A stretch of 64,000 nucleotides of DNA from Escherichia coli (GTDB lineage Bacteria; Pseudomonadota; Gammaproteobacteria; Enterobacterales; Enterobacteriaceae), in assembly GCF_003334335.1 (NCBI RefSeq), contig NZ_QOWQ01000007.1; one strand, written 5' to 3'. A program made the translations under genes and the position numbers. Under the pieces are notes generated by a model, which saw only the letters and a program-made list of their open reading frames with translations, searched no databases and was not told the DNA's origin. Of this stretch, positions 25,779-44,956 are shown one piece after another (the first letter of the stretch is position 1; the number at the start of each line of letters is the position of its first letter).

Positions 25779-26900
25779 ATGTCAAAAGTCGCTCTCATCA
25801 CCGGTGTAACCGGACAAGACGGTTCTTACCTGGCAGAGTTTCTGCTGGAAAAAGGTTACGAGGTGCATGGTATTAAGCGTCGTGCATCGTCATTCAACAC
25901 CGAGCGCGTGGATCACATTTATCAGGATCCGCACACCTGCAACCCGAAATTCCATCTGCATTATGGCGACCTGAGTGATACCTCCAACCTGACACGCATT
26001 TTGCGTGAAGTGCAGCCGGATGAAGTTTACAACCTGGGCGCAATGAGCCACGTTGCGGTTTCTTTTGAGTCACCGGAATATACCGCAGACGTCGATGCGA
26101 TGGGTACGCTGCGCCTGCTCGAGGCGATCCGCTTCCTCGGTCTGGAAAAGAAAACCCGTTTCTATCAGGCTTCCACCTCTGAACTGTATGGTCTGGTGCA
26201 GGAAATTCCGCAGAAAGAAACCACGCCGTTCTACCCACGCTCTCCGTATGCTGTCGCCAAACTGTACGCCTACTGGATCACCGTTAACTACCGCGAATCC
26301 TACGGCATGTACGCCTGTAACGGTATTCTCTTCAACCATGAATCCCCGCGCCGCGGCGAAACCTTCGTTACCCGCAAAATCACCCGCGCAATCGCCAATA
26401 TCGCCCAGGGGCTGGAGTCGTGCCTGTACCTCGGCAATATGGATTCCCTGCGTGACTGGGGCCACGCCAAAGACTACGTAAAAATGCAGTGGATGATGCT
26501 GCAACAGGAACAGCCGGAAGATTTCGTTATCGCGACCGGCGTTCAGTACTCCGTGCGTCAGTTCGTGGAAATGGCAGCGGCACAGCTGGGCATCAAACTG
26601 CGCTTTGAAGGCACGGGTGTTGAAGAGAAGGGCATTGTGGTTTCCGTCACCGGGCATGACGCGCCGGGCGTTAAACCGGGTGATGTGATTATCGCCGTTG
26701 ATCCGCGTTACTTCCGTCCGGCTGAAGTTGAAACGCTGCTCGGCGACCCGACCAAAGCGCACGAAAAACTGGGCTGGAAACCGGAAATCACCCTCAGAGA
26801 GATGGTGTCTGAAATGGTGGCTAATGACCTCGAAGCGGCGAAAAAACACTCTCTGCTGAAATCTCACGGCTACGACGTGGCGATCGCGCTGGAGTCATAA
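25779..26900 (+). CDS. gmd: GDP-mannose 4,6-dehydratase (colanic acid copy)
   Basis: 373 aa; '[17 protein letters not shown]' Rossmann motif; high GC. Confidence 0.95.
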
Positions 26901-31111: not shown

Positions 31112-31201
31112 AATGAATGCGAAACCGAGATGTAAATAACGACAAAAACAAAATTGGCCGTTTCGGTCAGGGCCAACTATTGCCTGAAAAAGGGTAACGA
31201 C

Positions 31202-35610: not shown

Positions 35611-35796
35611 GCCGGATGCGGCGTAAAACGCCTTATCCATCCTACGGTTCCGTGCTCGGGACCTGTAGGCCTGATAAGACGCGTCAGCGTCGCATCAGGC
35701 ACTGAATGCCGGATGCGGCGTGAACGCCTTATCCGGCCTACGGTTCTGTGCTCGGGTCTTGTAGGCCTGATAAGACGCGTCAGCGTCGCATCAGGC
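35611..35796. repeat. Tandem BIME (two near-identical units of about 90 bp of paired REP palindromes) between wzxC and wcaK
   Basis: Unit 1 at 35611-35700 and unit 2 at 35709-35796 are almost identical ('gccggatgcggcgt.aacgccttatcc...gtaggcctgataagacgcgtcagcgtcgcatcaggc'). Confidence 0.85.
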
Positions 35797-39933: not shown

Positions 39934-40827
39934 ATGACGAATTTAAAAGCAGTTATTCCTGTAGCGGGTCTTGGGATGCATATGTTGCCTGCCACTAAGG
40001 CGATTCCCAAAGAGATGCTACCGATCGTCGACAAGCCAATGATTCAGTACATTGTTGACGAGATTGTGGCTGCAGGGATCAAAGAAATCCTCCTGGTAAC
40101 TCACGCGTCCAAGAACGCGGTCGAAAACCACTTCGACACCTCTTATGAATTAGAATCTCTTCTTGAACTGCGCGTGAAGCGTCAGCTGCTGGCGGAAGTG
40201 CAGTCCATCTGTCCGCCGGGCGTGACCATTATGAACGTGCGTCAGGGCGAACCTTTAGGTTTAGGTCACTCCATTTTGTGTGCGCGGCCTGCCATTGGTG
40301 ACAATCCATTTGTCGTGGTGCTGCCAGACGTTGTGATCGACGACGCCAGCGCCGACCCGCTGCGCTACAACCTTGCTGCCATGATTGCACGATTCAACGA
40401 AACGGGTCGTAGCCAGGTGCTGGCAAAACGTATGCCGGGTGACCTCTCTGAATACTCGGTCATCCAGACCAAAGAACCACTGGACCGTGAAGGTAAAGTC
40501 AGCCGCATTGTTGAATTTATCGAAAAACCGGATCAGCCGCAGACGTTGGACTCAGACATCATGGCCGTTGGTCGCTATGTGCTTTCTGCCGATATTTGGC
40601 CGGAACTTGAACGCACTCAGCCTGGTGCATGGGGGCGTATTCAGCTGACTGATGCCATCGCTGAACTGGCGAAAAAACAGTCCGTTGATGCCATGCTGAT
40701 GACAGGTGACAGCTACGACTGCGGTAAAAAAATGGGCTATATGCAGGCGTTCGTGAAGTATGGGCTGCGCAACCTCAAAGAAGGGGCGAAGTTCCGTAAA
40801 GGCATTGAGAAGCTGTTAAGCGAATAA
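39934..40827 (+). CDS. galF: UTP-glucose-1-phosphate uridylyltransferase paralog GalF
   Basis: Start at ATG 39934 ([14 protein letters not shown]...) giving 297 aa. Confidence 0.93.
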
Positions 40828-41085
40828 TGAAAATCTGACCGGATGTAACGGTTGATAAGAAAATTATAACGGCGGTGAAGATTCGTGGCGAAAGTAATTT
40901 GTTGCGAATATTCCTGCCGTTGTTTTATATAAATAATCAGAATAACAACGAGTTAGCAATAGGATTTTAGTCAAAGTTTTCCAGGATTTTCCTTGTTTCC
41001 AGAGCGGATTGGTAAGACAATTAGCGTTTGAATTTTTCGGGTTTAGCGCGAGTGGGTAACGCTCGTCACATCGTAGGCATGCATG

Positions 41086-41124
41086 CAGTGCTCTGGTAGC
41101 TGTAAAGCCAGGGGCGGTAGCGTG
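41086..41124 (+). promoter_or_regulatory. JUMPstart element with ops site (GGCGGTAGCGTG at 41113-41124) upstream of the O-antigen cluster
   Basis: 39-bp 'cagtgctctggtagctgtaaagccaggggcggtagcgtg'. Confidence 0.88.
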
Positions 41125-41346
41125 TCCAGTTTTAATAAAAAACGGCAGATAATTATCGGTTATATAGTCAAAACAATAAAAGATATTTATTAAATATTAA
41201 CGGGGTTGGCTTTAGTGATAAAGTGAGGAAGAACTCAGAAAATGAGAGCATATATTAGAAGTTAGCAGTTTACTCAAATTTTAAACATTTATGTTAACAT
41301 ATGTTTCTGATGAAAATTGTGAGTTTGAATCAATTGCAAAATTATC

Positions 41347-42714
41347 ATGCTATCAAAGGACCATAATTTGTCACATATAAATGACCCTAATAAGTTCTGG
41401 CTTAAGTTAATCCCCCCTCAAATTTTATCAAAAATATCCAATTATAATGGATTATTGGCTGCTATCAATAATAGTGGATGGCTTATCTTTGATAAATTAA
41501 TTCGACTGGCTCTTGGGTTTATTGTTAGTGCATGGATTGCGCGATATCTTGGGCCGAATGATTTTGGTATACTAGCATATGTTCTTGCATATTTGGCCTT
41601 TTTTCAAACTATATCTGTTTTAGGTATGGATGGAATCATTGTTAGGGATATAGCGAGAGATAAAGATAAAGCCGGTGAAGTATTAGGAACTGCATTTATA
41701 TTAAGATTAACAGTTGGTTTTATTTGTTGGATATTTTCAATCATTGGGATGATTATATTTAATGGAATCCATGATGAGGTTGTGTATATTACGGCAATTA
41801 CAGGAGGTCTATTATTATTCCAATCCGTCGATACAGTAGATCTTTGGTTTCAGAGTCAAAGTGAAAGCCGGAGGACTGTTATTGCGAAATTGACAGCTTA
41901 CTTATTATCTAGCAGTGTAAAAATAATATTGATATTAAATGAAGCACCATTAATAGCATTCGCAACAATAATGTTATTTGAAACTGTGGTTTCAGCTGTA
42001 GCATTAGTTATTGCTTATAGAAAATATCCTTGTTATCAATCTTGGGTATTCTTAAAACAACGAGCATATAAAATTATTAATGAGTCCTGGCCCTTTATCT
42101 TAAGTGGCCTTTCAATCTCAATATATATGAGAATAGATCAAATCATGATCAAGGAGTTTATGGGGGATTCTGAACTGGGAATATATGCTGCAGTACTACC
42201 TTTTGCAACACTATGGTCGTTTATTCCAATGACACTATCAATAAGCTTGGCACCTTTTGTTGCAAAAACAAAACAAAAAGGGGAAAGAGAATATTGGACC
42301 TGTTTATATACAATCTTTAGAGTGTTTGCAATTATTGCTTGGTTTGTGGCAATACCTATATCACTAATGTCGAATCATATCGTTTCAATACTTTTAGGTG
42401 CTAAATATGAAGCTGGATCTGTGGTTTTATCTATAATGGCATTTGTAAATATTTTTATAAACATGGGCATAGCACAAAGTTTATGGATATTAAATGAAGG
42501 TAAATCTAAAGTTAGCTTGTATAAAACGATGATAGGTGCAGTTGTATGTGTTGCTGCTAACCTTATTTTGATTCCGAAATATGGGCTTATAGGGGCTTCT
42601 GTAAGCGCGTTATTGGCACAATTTACATCATGCATACTAAGCAATTTTCTCATATGCAAAAAAATATTTTATCTACAAGTTAGAAGTTTGTTTTTTATCA
42701 AGATGAAATTTTGA
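41347..42714 (+). CDS. wzx: O-antigen flippase Wzx (MOP family)
   Basis: 455-aa AT-rich polytopic membrane protein; 'GWLIFDKLIRLALGFIVSAWIARYLGPNDFGI' typical of Wzx N-termini; first gene after JUMPstart; start codon uncertain. Confidence 0.75.
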   Translation: MLSKDHNLSHINDPNKFWLKLIPPQILSKISNYNGLLAAINNSGWLIFDKLIRLALGFIVSAWIARYLGPNDFGILAYVLAYLAFFQTISVLGMDGIIVRDIARDKDKAGEVLGTAFILRLTVGFICWIFSIIGMIIFNGIHDEVVYITAITGGLLLFQSVDTVDLWFQSQSESRRTVIAKLTAYLLSSSVKIILILNEAPLIAFATIMLFETVVSAVALVIAYRKYPCYQSWVFLKQRAYKIINESWPFILSGLSISIYMRIDQIMIKEFMGDSELGIYAAVLPFATLWSFIPMTLSISLAPFVAKTKQKGEREYWTCLYTIFRVFAIIAWFVAIPISLMSNHIVSILLGAKYEAGSVVLSIMAFVNIFINMGIAQSLWILNEGKSKVSLYKTMIGAVVCVAANLILIPKYGLIGASVSALLAQFTSCILSNFLICKKIFYLQVRSLFFIKMKF

Positions 42715-42802
42715 TTAGTGAATAAGATATAGCGTTGCATATTTGTAATGAAATATAAATTAGATTAATCAGTAATATTGTTTTCAAAATAGGGATAATG
42801 CT

Positions 42803-44023
42803 TTGAATATAGTACTTTCGCTACTACTGCTTCTGATAGGGGGGATATCGATTATATGTGCAATAAATAAAAAGCGACCTATGCTTTTAATTCTTGCAGC
42901 CTTCTTTACAGTATATTTGGCGCTACGCCCCGTATTGCTTTCATTGGGCTTATATAATATTTATGCTTACCTCAACCCATCTGTTATCGATTATGACGAA
43001 AGCGCGCTTACGCATTGTATTATATTCACCCTAATATCATATGTATTGTTATTATTTACTTATCATAAAACAAAAAAAAGAATAAAGATTGATAAATCAA
43101 GCAATAATGACGATCAGAGAGAAAGTAATAGTAATTATAATTTTGTTGCATTTATAATTGCTCTATTACTAATCTTTTCAGTTATATTGATACCAATGTA
43201 TGTTTGTTTTGTTTATTTACTGCTGTTGATCTTGTATTATATTATCAAGTATAAAGGAGATGGGCGTAAGCTTAATGTTGTATTATCGGCTCTTTATTAT
43301 ATCTTATTAATTTTATTGCTTTTTTTTATTTCAGATGATCGTCGTGATTGGTTAGTGGCTATAGGTGTTCCTTTATATATATACATATTTGTATACTTAA
43401 AAAGCCTTATTAAGATTTTAATACCCTCAATAGTTTGCCTGCTACTTCTGGTATATATAAGTGTAGCATTCAGGAGCGGAGGTGATATATTTGATTATGA
43501 TGCTGTTAAAAATAGAGCTGAATCAGTAAGTGCAACTCTTACAGTACTTGAAGTAGAAACTGATTTTAGTATTGTATTTGATGATTATTTACTTTTATTT
43601 GACAAAAGATACTCAAGTATTGATTTTTTATACGGGGTGACAATTTTAAAACCTGTCATCTCGATTATCCCAAGAAGTATATTTCCCGACAAGCCAGAAA
43701 CATCTAGTCGACTTTTCCCAAAATATTTTAATAAACAGTTTTATAATGTTGGTGGTAGTGAACCTGTAACATTATTTGGGGAACTATATTGGAATTTTTC
43801 GTATTTGTCTCTCATTGTTTTTATGTTGTTGGGTAATATTATTGCTCTGATTGATAATACATATTTACATAATAGATCTAATTACTTATTCTCAGCATTG
43901 GTATTATCATTAAGCTTAACTGGTTTCCATCTTCTAAGAGGGCCGATTGATTCTTTTTGTTATCTGTATTTATGGTTGATATTGGCTTATCAATTATTGA
44001 ATGTCGTTAAAAAAATTAAATAG
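42803..44023 (+). CDS. wzy: Putative O-antigen polymerase Wzy
   Basis: 406-aa very hydrophobic, AT-rich ORF with apparent TTG start; about 10 predicted TM segments and one larger loop; assignment by position and topology only. Confidence 0.6.
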   Translation: MNIVLSLLLLLIGGISIICAINKKRPMLLILAAFFTVYLALRPVLLSLGLYNIYAYLNPSVIDYDESALTHCIIFTLISYVLLLFTYHKTKKRIKIDKSSNNDDQRESNSNYNFVAFIIALLLIFSVILIPMYVCFVYLLLLILYYIIKYKGDGRKLNVVLSALYYILLILLLFFISDDRRDWLVAIGVPLYIYIFVYLKSLIKILIPSIVCLLLLVYISVAFRSGGDIFDYDAVKNRAESVSATLTVLEVETDFSIVFDDYLLLFDKRYSSIDFLYGVTILKPVISIIPRSIFPDKPETSSRLFPKYFNKQFYNVGGSEPVTLFGELYWNFSYLSLIVFMLLGNIIALIDNTYLHNRSNYLFSALVLSLSLTGFHLLRGPIDSFCYLYLWLILAYQLLNVVKKIK

Positions 44024-44032
44024 GATATTAAG

Positions 44033-44956
44033 ATGAGTAGCAATCTTGCACCAATATGTTTATTTGTGTATAACAGATATGAGCATACAGTACGAACTGT
44101 TGAGGCTTTGAAAAAAAACACACTTGCATCAAAGTCTGAACTTTATATATTTAGTGATGCGTCCAAAGATTCAAAATCTGTAGTTCAGGTACAAAAAGTT
44201 AGAGAGTATGTTGATACAATAAAAGGTTTTAAGAAAATAACAATAATTAAAGCACCAAAAAACATGGGGTTGGCGGAATCAATTATTAGCGGGGTGTCAT
44301 CTGTTATAAAAAAATATGGGCGTGTAATTGTATTTGAAGATGATCTAGTCTCAAGTCCACTGACTCTAGAATACCTCAATATAATGTTAGATAACTATAA
44401 GAATCAAGAAGACGTTATGTCGGTTACTAGCTACTCGTATCCTGAAAAAACATTAGAAATAGATAAATTTTACAATTTCGATAATTATTTTACGGGGAGA
44501 CCATGTTCATGGGGATGGGCAACATGGCAAGATAGGTGGGAGTCTATTCAATGGGAGGGTGATATATATAGAGATTATTTAAAAAACGAAAGCATGCAGA
44601 AGCAATTCATGAAATATTCAGGTGTCGATATTGACCGAATGCTTAAAAAACAATTGGCAGGGCATATTGATTCGTGGGCAGTAAGATTTGTCTTTAATTG
44701 TTTTTTACAGAAAAAATTAGCTTCATACCCGACTAAATCGTATATTACAAATATCGGTTCTGATGGGACAGGTACGCATCGGGGAGTTAATGAAGAATAT
44801 ATAGTGAATTACTCCTTAAATATTAATCTGCCAACAAATTTGCTAAATGATCTATATGTAGATAAGGATATTTGGAAGCAGTTTAATTTATTTGTTAGGA
44901 AAAAATATTTTTTTCGGAGGGCTTTACTGTTTATAAGAAGGAAATTTTATGCTTAA
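44033..44956 (+). CDS. Putative glycosyltransferase (GT-A-like; candidate DXD 'FEDD')
   Basis: 307 aa; 'ICLFVYNRYEHTVRTVEAL...IFSDAS...VFEDDLV' resembles GT-A signatures; family not determinable without search. Confidence 0.55.
   Translation: MSSNLAPICLFVYNRYEHTVRTVEALKKNTLASKSELYIFSDASKDSKSVVQVQKVREYVDTIKGFKKITIIKAPKNMGLAESIISGVSSVIKKYGRVIVFEDDLVSSPLTLEYLNIMLDNYKNQEDVMSVTSYSYPEKTLEIDKFYNFDNYFTGRPCSWGWATWQDRWESIQWEGDIYRDYLKNESMQKQFMKYSGVDIDRMLKKQLAGHIDSWAVRFVFNCFLQKKLASYPTKSYITNIGSDGTGTHRGVNEEYIVNYSLNINLPTNLLNDLYVDKDIWKQFNLFVRKKYFFRRALLFIRRKFYA

Follow-up and report, generated by a model that had tools for sequence, protein, structure and literature searches.

Introduction

JUMPstart is the 39-bp element of Hobbs and Reeves. 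The element, its two positions in Escherichia coli (before wza, and in the gap between galF and the O-antigen cluster) and its dependence on RfaH are already described in the literature. The ops sequence is a consensus pause, at which RNA polymerase halts at U11, driven by the T11-G12 dinucleotide (PMC5995543). The non-template strand folds into a small DNA hairpin with G4-A7 as its loop and C3:G8 as its closing pair; T6 is flipped out and enters a pocket in the N-terminal domain of RfaH, and changes at G4, G5, A7 or G8 abolish RfaH recruitment (PMC5995543). Once recruited, RfaH refolds and hyper-stabilises the pause; it is thought to bring in a ribosome, and it remains bound until the operon ends (PMC11001881). 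Weinberg et al. (2010) described a stem-loop that JUMPstart elements have in common.

The closest in vivo data come from strain CFT073. RfaH ChIP-seq in the wild type gives a signal on the wzx unit, from the leader through wzzB, and RfaH is found on wza-wcaM only in an hns stpA double mutant, in which the otherwise silent promoter fires (PMC9765446). All RfaH targets of CFT073 are coated by H-NS, and both leaders (wzx and wza) contain GGCGGTAGCGTG (PMC9765446).

Here we analyze a 64,000-nucleotide stretch of E. coli DNA (the window) that holds a colanic-acid locus and an O-antigen locus, and we compare the leader elements of the two with each other and with those described before.

Results

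Gene order in the window

The window is nearly identical to strain LR-29-1 (NZ_AP027515.1), from which it differs by 6 substitutions and 1 extra homopolymer A over 43 kb. It contains, in this order:

16764-39759, plus strand: wza to wcaM (colanic acid)
39934-40827, plus strand: galF
41368-53245, plus strand: O-antigen cluster with wzx, a wzy-like gene, four glycosyltransferases, gmd, fcl, gmm, manC and manB, assigned from the RefSeq annotation of the near-identical record and from NCBIfam

Within the cluster, gmd, fcl, gmm, manC and manB are the GDP-fucose genes. manB is followed by gnd, ugd and wzzB, beyond which the his operon runs in the opposite direction. A cluster of the Wzx/Wzy type is supported by NCBIfam searches, in which no serogroup-specific model matched its Wzx and Wzy. 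The cluster is rare, being present in 3 of the 5426 complete E. coli genomes. At ~44008-44014 the window has a run of seven A and NZ_AP027515.1 a run of six, which alters the end of the wzy-like ORF (406 aa versus 410 aa); this may reflect either a sequencing difference in the homopolymer or genuine variation. Elsewhere in the window, Rfam reports two Sib antitoxin RNAs (320-462 and 649-797, both on the minus strand), an naRNA4/REP-type element past wzxC (35668-35738, minus strand) and an algC RNA motif directly upstream of cpsG (31148-31197, plus strand).

A JUMPstart element between galF and wzx

A search with the Rfam JUMPstart covariance model (RF01707, gathering score 35) identified two elements in the window, and both matches span model positions 1-38, that is, the full length of the model. 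The features are:

41086-41124, plus strand: JUMPstart of the O-antigen operon leader; RF01707, 60.0 bits, E 2.6e-11; identical at 39/39 positions to the K-12 rfb element (O16, before rfbB) and at 39/39 to the CFT073 element (O6, before wzx)
16547-16585, plus strand: JUMPstart of the colanic-acid (wza-wcaM) leader; RF01707, 57.3 bits, E 1.6e-10; identical to the CFT073 wza copy
41113-41124, plus strand (non-template strand): ops, an exact GGCGGTAGCGTG 12-mer; predicted RNA polymerase pause (U11) at 41123

The first match has exactly the coordinates at which a sequence-only reading of this DNA had placed a JUMPstart/ops element ahead of the O-antigen cluster. It lies in noncoding DNA, 258 nt past the galF stop (40827) and 243 nt ahead of the wzx start (41368), and the downstream genes are all on the plus strand. 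The ops of the wza copy (16574-16585) is located 190 nt upstream of the wza ATG (16764). The GGCGGTAGCGTG 12-mer occurs at exactly two sites in the window (16574 and 41113), each on the sense strand of a leader, and at both the consensus GGCGGTAGnnTG is matched with bases 3-8 intact and T11-G12 present. Three further GGCGGTAG octamers, at 5170-5177 (minus strand), 15987 (plus strand) and 29333 (plus strand), come without the remaining bases of the 12-mer. Judged by its sequence, 41086-41124 belongs fully to the JUMPstart family, has a canonical ops and is of the kind that is standard for O-antigen operons of E. coli.

Direct comparison of the two 39-mers gives 34 equal positions out of 39, where 32 had been counted before. 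The differences fall on element positions 6, 7, 8, 17 and 18, and the string common to both copies reads CAGTG...TGGTAGCT..AAAGCCAGGGGCGGTAGCGTG; the version quoted in the earlier reading agrees with it except for one wrong position. To the right of both elements two extra bases (TC) match, and comparison of the flanks of the two copies revealed no similarity on either side beyond these. A match of 34/39 between any two sites is expected only ~2e-6 times in the 64-kb window, so that chance is excluded as its source.

Probable transcription through the element

The segment between galF and the element is well conserved:

40828-41085, plus strand: galF-JUMPstart spacer with the presumed O-antigen promoter(s); ~96-98% identical to K-12 and CFT073

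A sigma-70 consensus scan upstream of 41086 on the plus strand found no strong promoter, and upstream of the wza copy the best candidate (16431-16458) reached only a 9/12 match. Since these scans yielded no convincing promoter, we relied on start-site data from relatives. In CFT073, ops lies 67 nt downstream of the start of the wzx unit, and a sigma-70 ChIP peak coincides with this predicted start (Hustmyer et al. 2022, PMC9765446, Data set S2A). By homology, over a stretch without indels, this start maps to ~41046 in the window. The start of K-12 rfbB, for which Kim et al. (2012) give a 317-nt UTR and 8 reads, maps by homology to ~40883, 203 nt ahead of JUMPstart; the tables of the same study list no wza start site. 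The two positions are ~160 nt apart, the K-12 start being defined by 8 reads and the CFT073 start by an RNA-seq unit boundary. In both K-12 and CFT073 the published start thus lies upstream of ops; a start downstream of it, which would leave the element untranscribed, is seen in neither. By analogy with these strains, we infer that the element is transcribed here as well, from one or more spacer promoters upstream of ops. No terminator was predicted in the spacer, so that read-through from galF would cross the element too.

We also searched the window for RcsAB boxes, using TAAGAATATTCCTA, which we take to be the consensus, and allowing up to 3 mismatches. There were 3 matches against 4.1 expected, none of them upstream of wza. 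The segment 40903-40916 (TGCGAATATTCCTG) in the galF-JUMPstart spacer is within 3 mismatches of this consensus, the number of matches in the window being within chance.

Probable RfaH loading at the O-antigen leader

The leaders in the window agree with those of CFT073 and K-12 at all JUMPstart positions and at ~96-98% of the surrounding ones. The rfaH gene lies outside the window; it is found at full length, with at least 90% identity, in 5426/5426 complete E. coli genomes, including LR-29-1. The earlier suggestion that RfaH acts on both polysaccharide operons is backed by the CFT073 ChIP-seq on the same sequences, and by analogy it should hold for this strain.

We conclude that 41086-41124 is very probably a JUMPstart in the operon leader, which loads RfaH for antitermination of the O-antigen operon. 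What our own analysis contributes is the sequence identity, the family assignment, the position, the strand, the conservation boundary and the covariation of the stem (see below). RfaH binding, pausing and antitermination are established in the literature for identical sequences and would be expected to occur likewise in this strain. The cluster at 41368-53245 is presumed to be under control of the element; going by the RfaH signal in CFT073, which extends through gnd, ugd and wzzB, the controlled unit would reach ~57395 here.

On this model, transcription would begin in the conserved galF-JUMPstart spacer and run through the element, and RNA polymerase would pause at ops U11 (41123). The non-template GGCGGTAG, exposed in the open bubble, would fold into the small DNA hairpin with T6 flipped out. 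Autoinhibited RfaH would recognize this DNA hairpin, bind to the polymerase, refold, exclude NusG and recruit a ribosome. The modified polymerase would resist pausing, Rho and H-NS-promoted termination over the long, horizontally acquired cluster of 30% GC. The copy at 16547-16585 would do likewise for wza-wcaM when the wza promoter fires.

A conserved hairpin upstream of ops

The Rfam consensus structure places a stem-loop in the part of the element that precedes ops:

41093-41111, plus strand: JUMPstart stem-loop; 41093-41097 (CUGGU) pairs with 41107-41111 (GCCAG), enclosing a 9-nt loop (41098-41106)

All 5 of the 5 pairs are standard, and the stem-loop is found directly 5' of the GGGCGGTAGCGTG block, with GGGCGGUAGCGUG left unpaired by the Rfam model. 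When the leader and both 39-mers were folded as single sequences, z-scores were between ~0 and -1.1, no better than for shuffled sequences, and the minimum-energy fold of the wza copy differs from the Rfam stem. As folding energies were uninformative, we used covariation instead. We hand-picked and aligned 22 JUMPstart-like sequences. Of the cells in this alignment 99.1% pair (88.6% in shuffles), 2 of the pairs contain a total of 7 compensatory cells, and sliding the partner arm along lowers pairing to 22-62%. As far as these sequences indicate, the 5-bp hairpin shows compensatory changes across Gammaproteobacteria.

To assess the spacing between hairpin and ops, we scanned for GGGGCGGTAGCGTG in one genome per species and obtained at least 120 loci. 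For the register test we used 121 sites from diverse genomes, among the matches listed. A hairpin of at least 5 bp whose 3' arm ends at the first G of the pattern is present at 52 of these 121 listed sites (6-24 of the 121 at other offsets), and the 52 hairpins among the matches listed comprise 32 distinct arm pairs. At this favoured offset the hairpin stops 2 nt ahead of ops G1, with 12 nt to go to U11.

The hairpin is not a general feature of RfaH targets. Among 8 RfaH-bound ops sites in CFT073, the JUMPstart hairpin, 2 nt before ops, is found only at wzx, wza, kpsM and rfaQ. At hlyC and c4518 another conserved box is found, whose CCGG...CCGG hairpin stops ~4 nt short of ops, and c1882 and tssH have no hairpin upstream of ops. 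Because the JUMPstart hairpin is missing at 4 of these 8 sites, it is not needed for RfaH loading as such.

A model built on ops only leaves the conserved upstream hairpin unexplained. The 5' two-thirds of JUMPstart could act as an RNA hairpin of the sense strand and have a separate role, additional to that of the RfaH-binding DNA site; sitting in the RNA exit channel, it might limit backtracking or modulate the ops pause, or it might aid ribosome loading. The covarying stem with its loss of pairing on sliding, the fixed 2-nt spacing to ops G1 maintained with so many different arm pairs, and the stem-loop of Weinberg et al. (2010) all speak for such a role, and frequent G-U pairs fit a structure on the sense strand only. 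However, the hairpin is confined to the 4 polysaccharide sites among the RfaH-bound sites of CFT073, the folding energies give no more stability than in shuffled sequences and, for the wza copy, favour another fold, and structural work finds that ops and RfaH alone set the cycle and that the ops pause is unlike hairpin-stabilized pauses (PMC11001881). On balance we regard a separate RNA function as possible, though rather unlikely. If it exists, it would belong to the JUMPstart family in general, specifically in polysaccharide leaders, and not to this locus.

Among the matches listed, 16 of the 52 hairpin-bearing sites have CCTG or TCTG right after GCGTG, as judged by eye. At this position the wza copy has TCTG (16586-16589) and the O-antigen copy TCCA. 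CCTG/TCTG may represent an extension of the conserved motif.

Conservation ends at the last base of the element

Sequence similarity among the window, K-12 and CFT073 stops at the last G of the element, position 41124, beyond which the clusters are unrelated. Most megablast matches of the spacer in other genomes stop at the same base. What follows in the window is specific to the cluster:

41125-41367, plus strand: cluster-specific AT-rich leader from JUMPstart to wzx; 27% GC, common to only 3 complete genomes

The GC content is 47-49% in galF, 39.5% in the spacer and 61.5% in the element, drops to 27% in the next 243 nt and is ~30% in the first genes; over the cluster as a whole it is ~30-40%, returning to ~48-54% at gnd. 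The drop to ~30% right after the element fits the H-NS counter-silencing model of PMC9765446. Position 41124 marks the switch from the conserved chromosome backbone to the serotype-specific cluster. The element is thus of help in annotating and delimiting this rare O-antigen cluster, and it would mark the start of the antitermination control of the operon.

The coincidence of the element with this edge raises the question of whether it serves chiefly as a fixed left crossover point, at which whole clusters are replaced by homologous recombination, its conservation reflecting that use. The common end of similarity in this strain, K-12 (O16) and CFT073 (O6), the megablast matches ending at 41124 and the GC shift at the same base are what one would expect of such a junction. 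Yet an edge of homology is also expected wherever a conserved functional element adjoins a variable cluster, and the motif occurs before wza, kpsM and rfaQ as well, where no replacement junction is implied. Moreover, experiments demonstrate RfaH binding and function at ops. A junction role is compatible with a regulatory one, but it leaves the sequence itself unexplained, and we consider it improbable as the main reason for the conservation. RfaH loading remains the preferred explanation for the element.

Resemblance between the two copies

Of the 5426 complete E. coli genomes, 2388 carry the O-antigen 39-mer, with an identical sequence in 2179, and 4580 carry the wza 39-mer, with an identical sequence in 4141. 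For each, the number of sites per genome has a median of 1 and a maximum of 2. As identical 39-mers recur throughout the species, each nearly always in one place, the two copies are stable alleles of one motif.

These population data bear on the idea that the two copies resemble each other through recent gene conversion between the loci, as could be the case for a patch in gmd. A 23-nt exact word (16565-16587 and 41104-41126) is indeed the second-longest common to both loci, after a 44-nt word in gmd, and to this extent the sequence-only reading, which had remarked on a short identity between the loci, described the fact correctly. As a sign of exchange the word does not stand: the five differences are fixed species-wide, the flanks are unrelated, and the two loci share precisely the 3' arm of the hairpin together with ops, a functionally constrained portion that other genera keep as well. 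Inter-locus exchange, which we regard as very unlikely, was rejected as the source of the likeness because the alleles are distinct across genomes. With the shared part restricted to hairpin 3' arm and ops, fixed differences and unrelated flanks, the resemblance is best read as that of a shared, functionally constrained regulatory motif.

A last alternative, in which the element is an intrinsic terminator or attenuator made of a stem at 41112-41127 followed by AGTTTTAATA, has next to no likelihood: a consensus scan does flag 1 terminator-like site there, but shuffled sequences would be expected to give 0.5 such matches, not far from this number, the 5-pair stem includes 2 G-U pairs (-5.8 kcal/mol, z-score -0.4), and its 3' arm and T-run lie in cluster-specific sequence absent from K-12, CFT073 and the wza copy, so that the site was rejected as weak and not conserved.

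The colanic-acid and O-antigen gmd genes are 69% identical in DNA sequence, with 128 of 374 codons identical. At 26307-26350 and 47631-47674, 14 consecutive codons are identical at the DNA level and make up the 44-nt exact word; such a run was reached in 0 of 20000 shuffles. The word could be a micro gene-conversion tract or the result of nucleotide-level constraint.

Discussion

The O-antigen leader of this strain is closely related to those of K-12 rfb (O16) and CFT073 (O6), with which it shares the 39-mer, the spacer, the strand and the position between galF and the first gene. It differs from them downstream of JUMPstart only, where a rare, fucose-type cluster with wzx as its first gene takes the place of theirs. 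The first gene also begins at a different distance: wzx follows after 243 nt (27% GC) in the window, rfbB of K-12 after ~75 nt and wzx of CFT073 after 59 nt.

The wza JUMPstart resembles the O-antigen copy in matching RF01707 and in having the same ops 12-mer and a 5-bp stem with a 9-nt loop that ends 2 nt before ops. It differs by 5 substitutions, which include a change of the closing C-G pair to U-G and two changes in the loop, and its flanks are unrelated. Moreover, the wza promoter does not fire under standard culture conditions, and RfaH is seen there only in the hns stpA mutant.

A more distant parallel is provided by the EAR element in the epsC leader of Firmicutes. Like JUMPstart, it is found before long polysaccharide operons and makes polymerase termination-resistant, a comparison drawn by Weinberg et al. 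The two have no sequence relationship, and they differ in how they would act: EAR acts as a structured RNA, as discussed by Weinberg et al., whereas the ligand presented by JUMPstart is a non-template DNA hairpin, bound by a NusG paralog.

The general framework is that of the ops/RfaH systems of rfaQ, kps, hly, tra and related operons. In these, as here, the non-template strand carries GGCGGTAGnnTG within an untranslated leader, and the operon that follows is long, AT-rich and horizontally acquired. Within this group, ops sites of the hly type and the T6SS type are without the JUMPstart hairpin, whereas those of the polysaccharide type, including the copy at 41086, have it.
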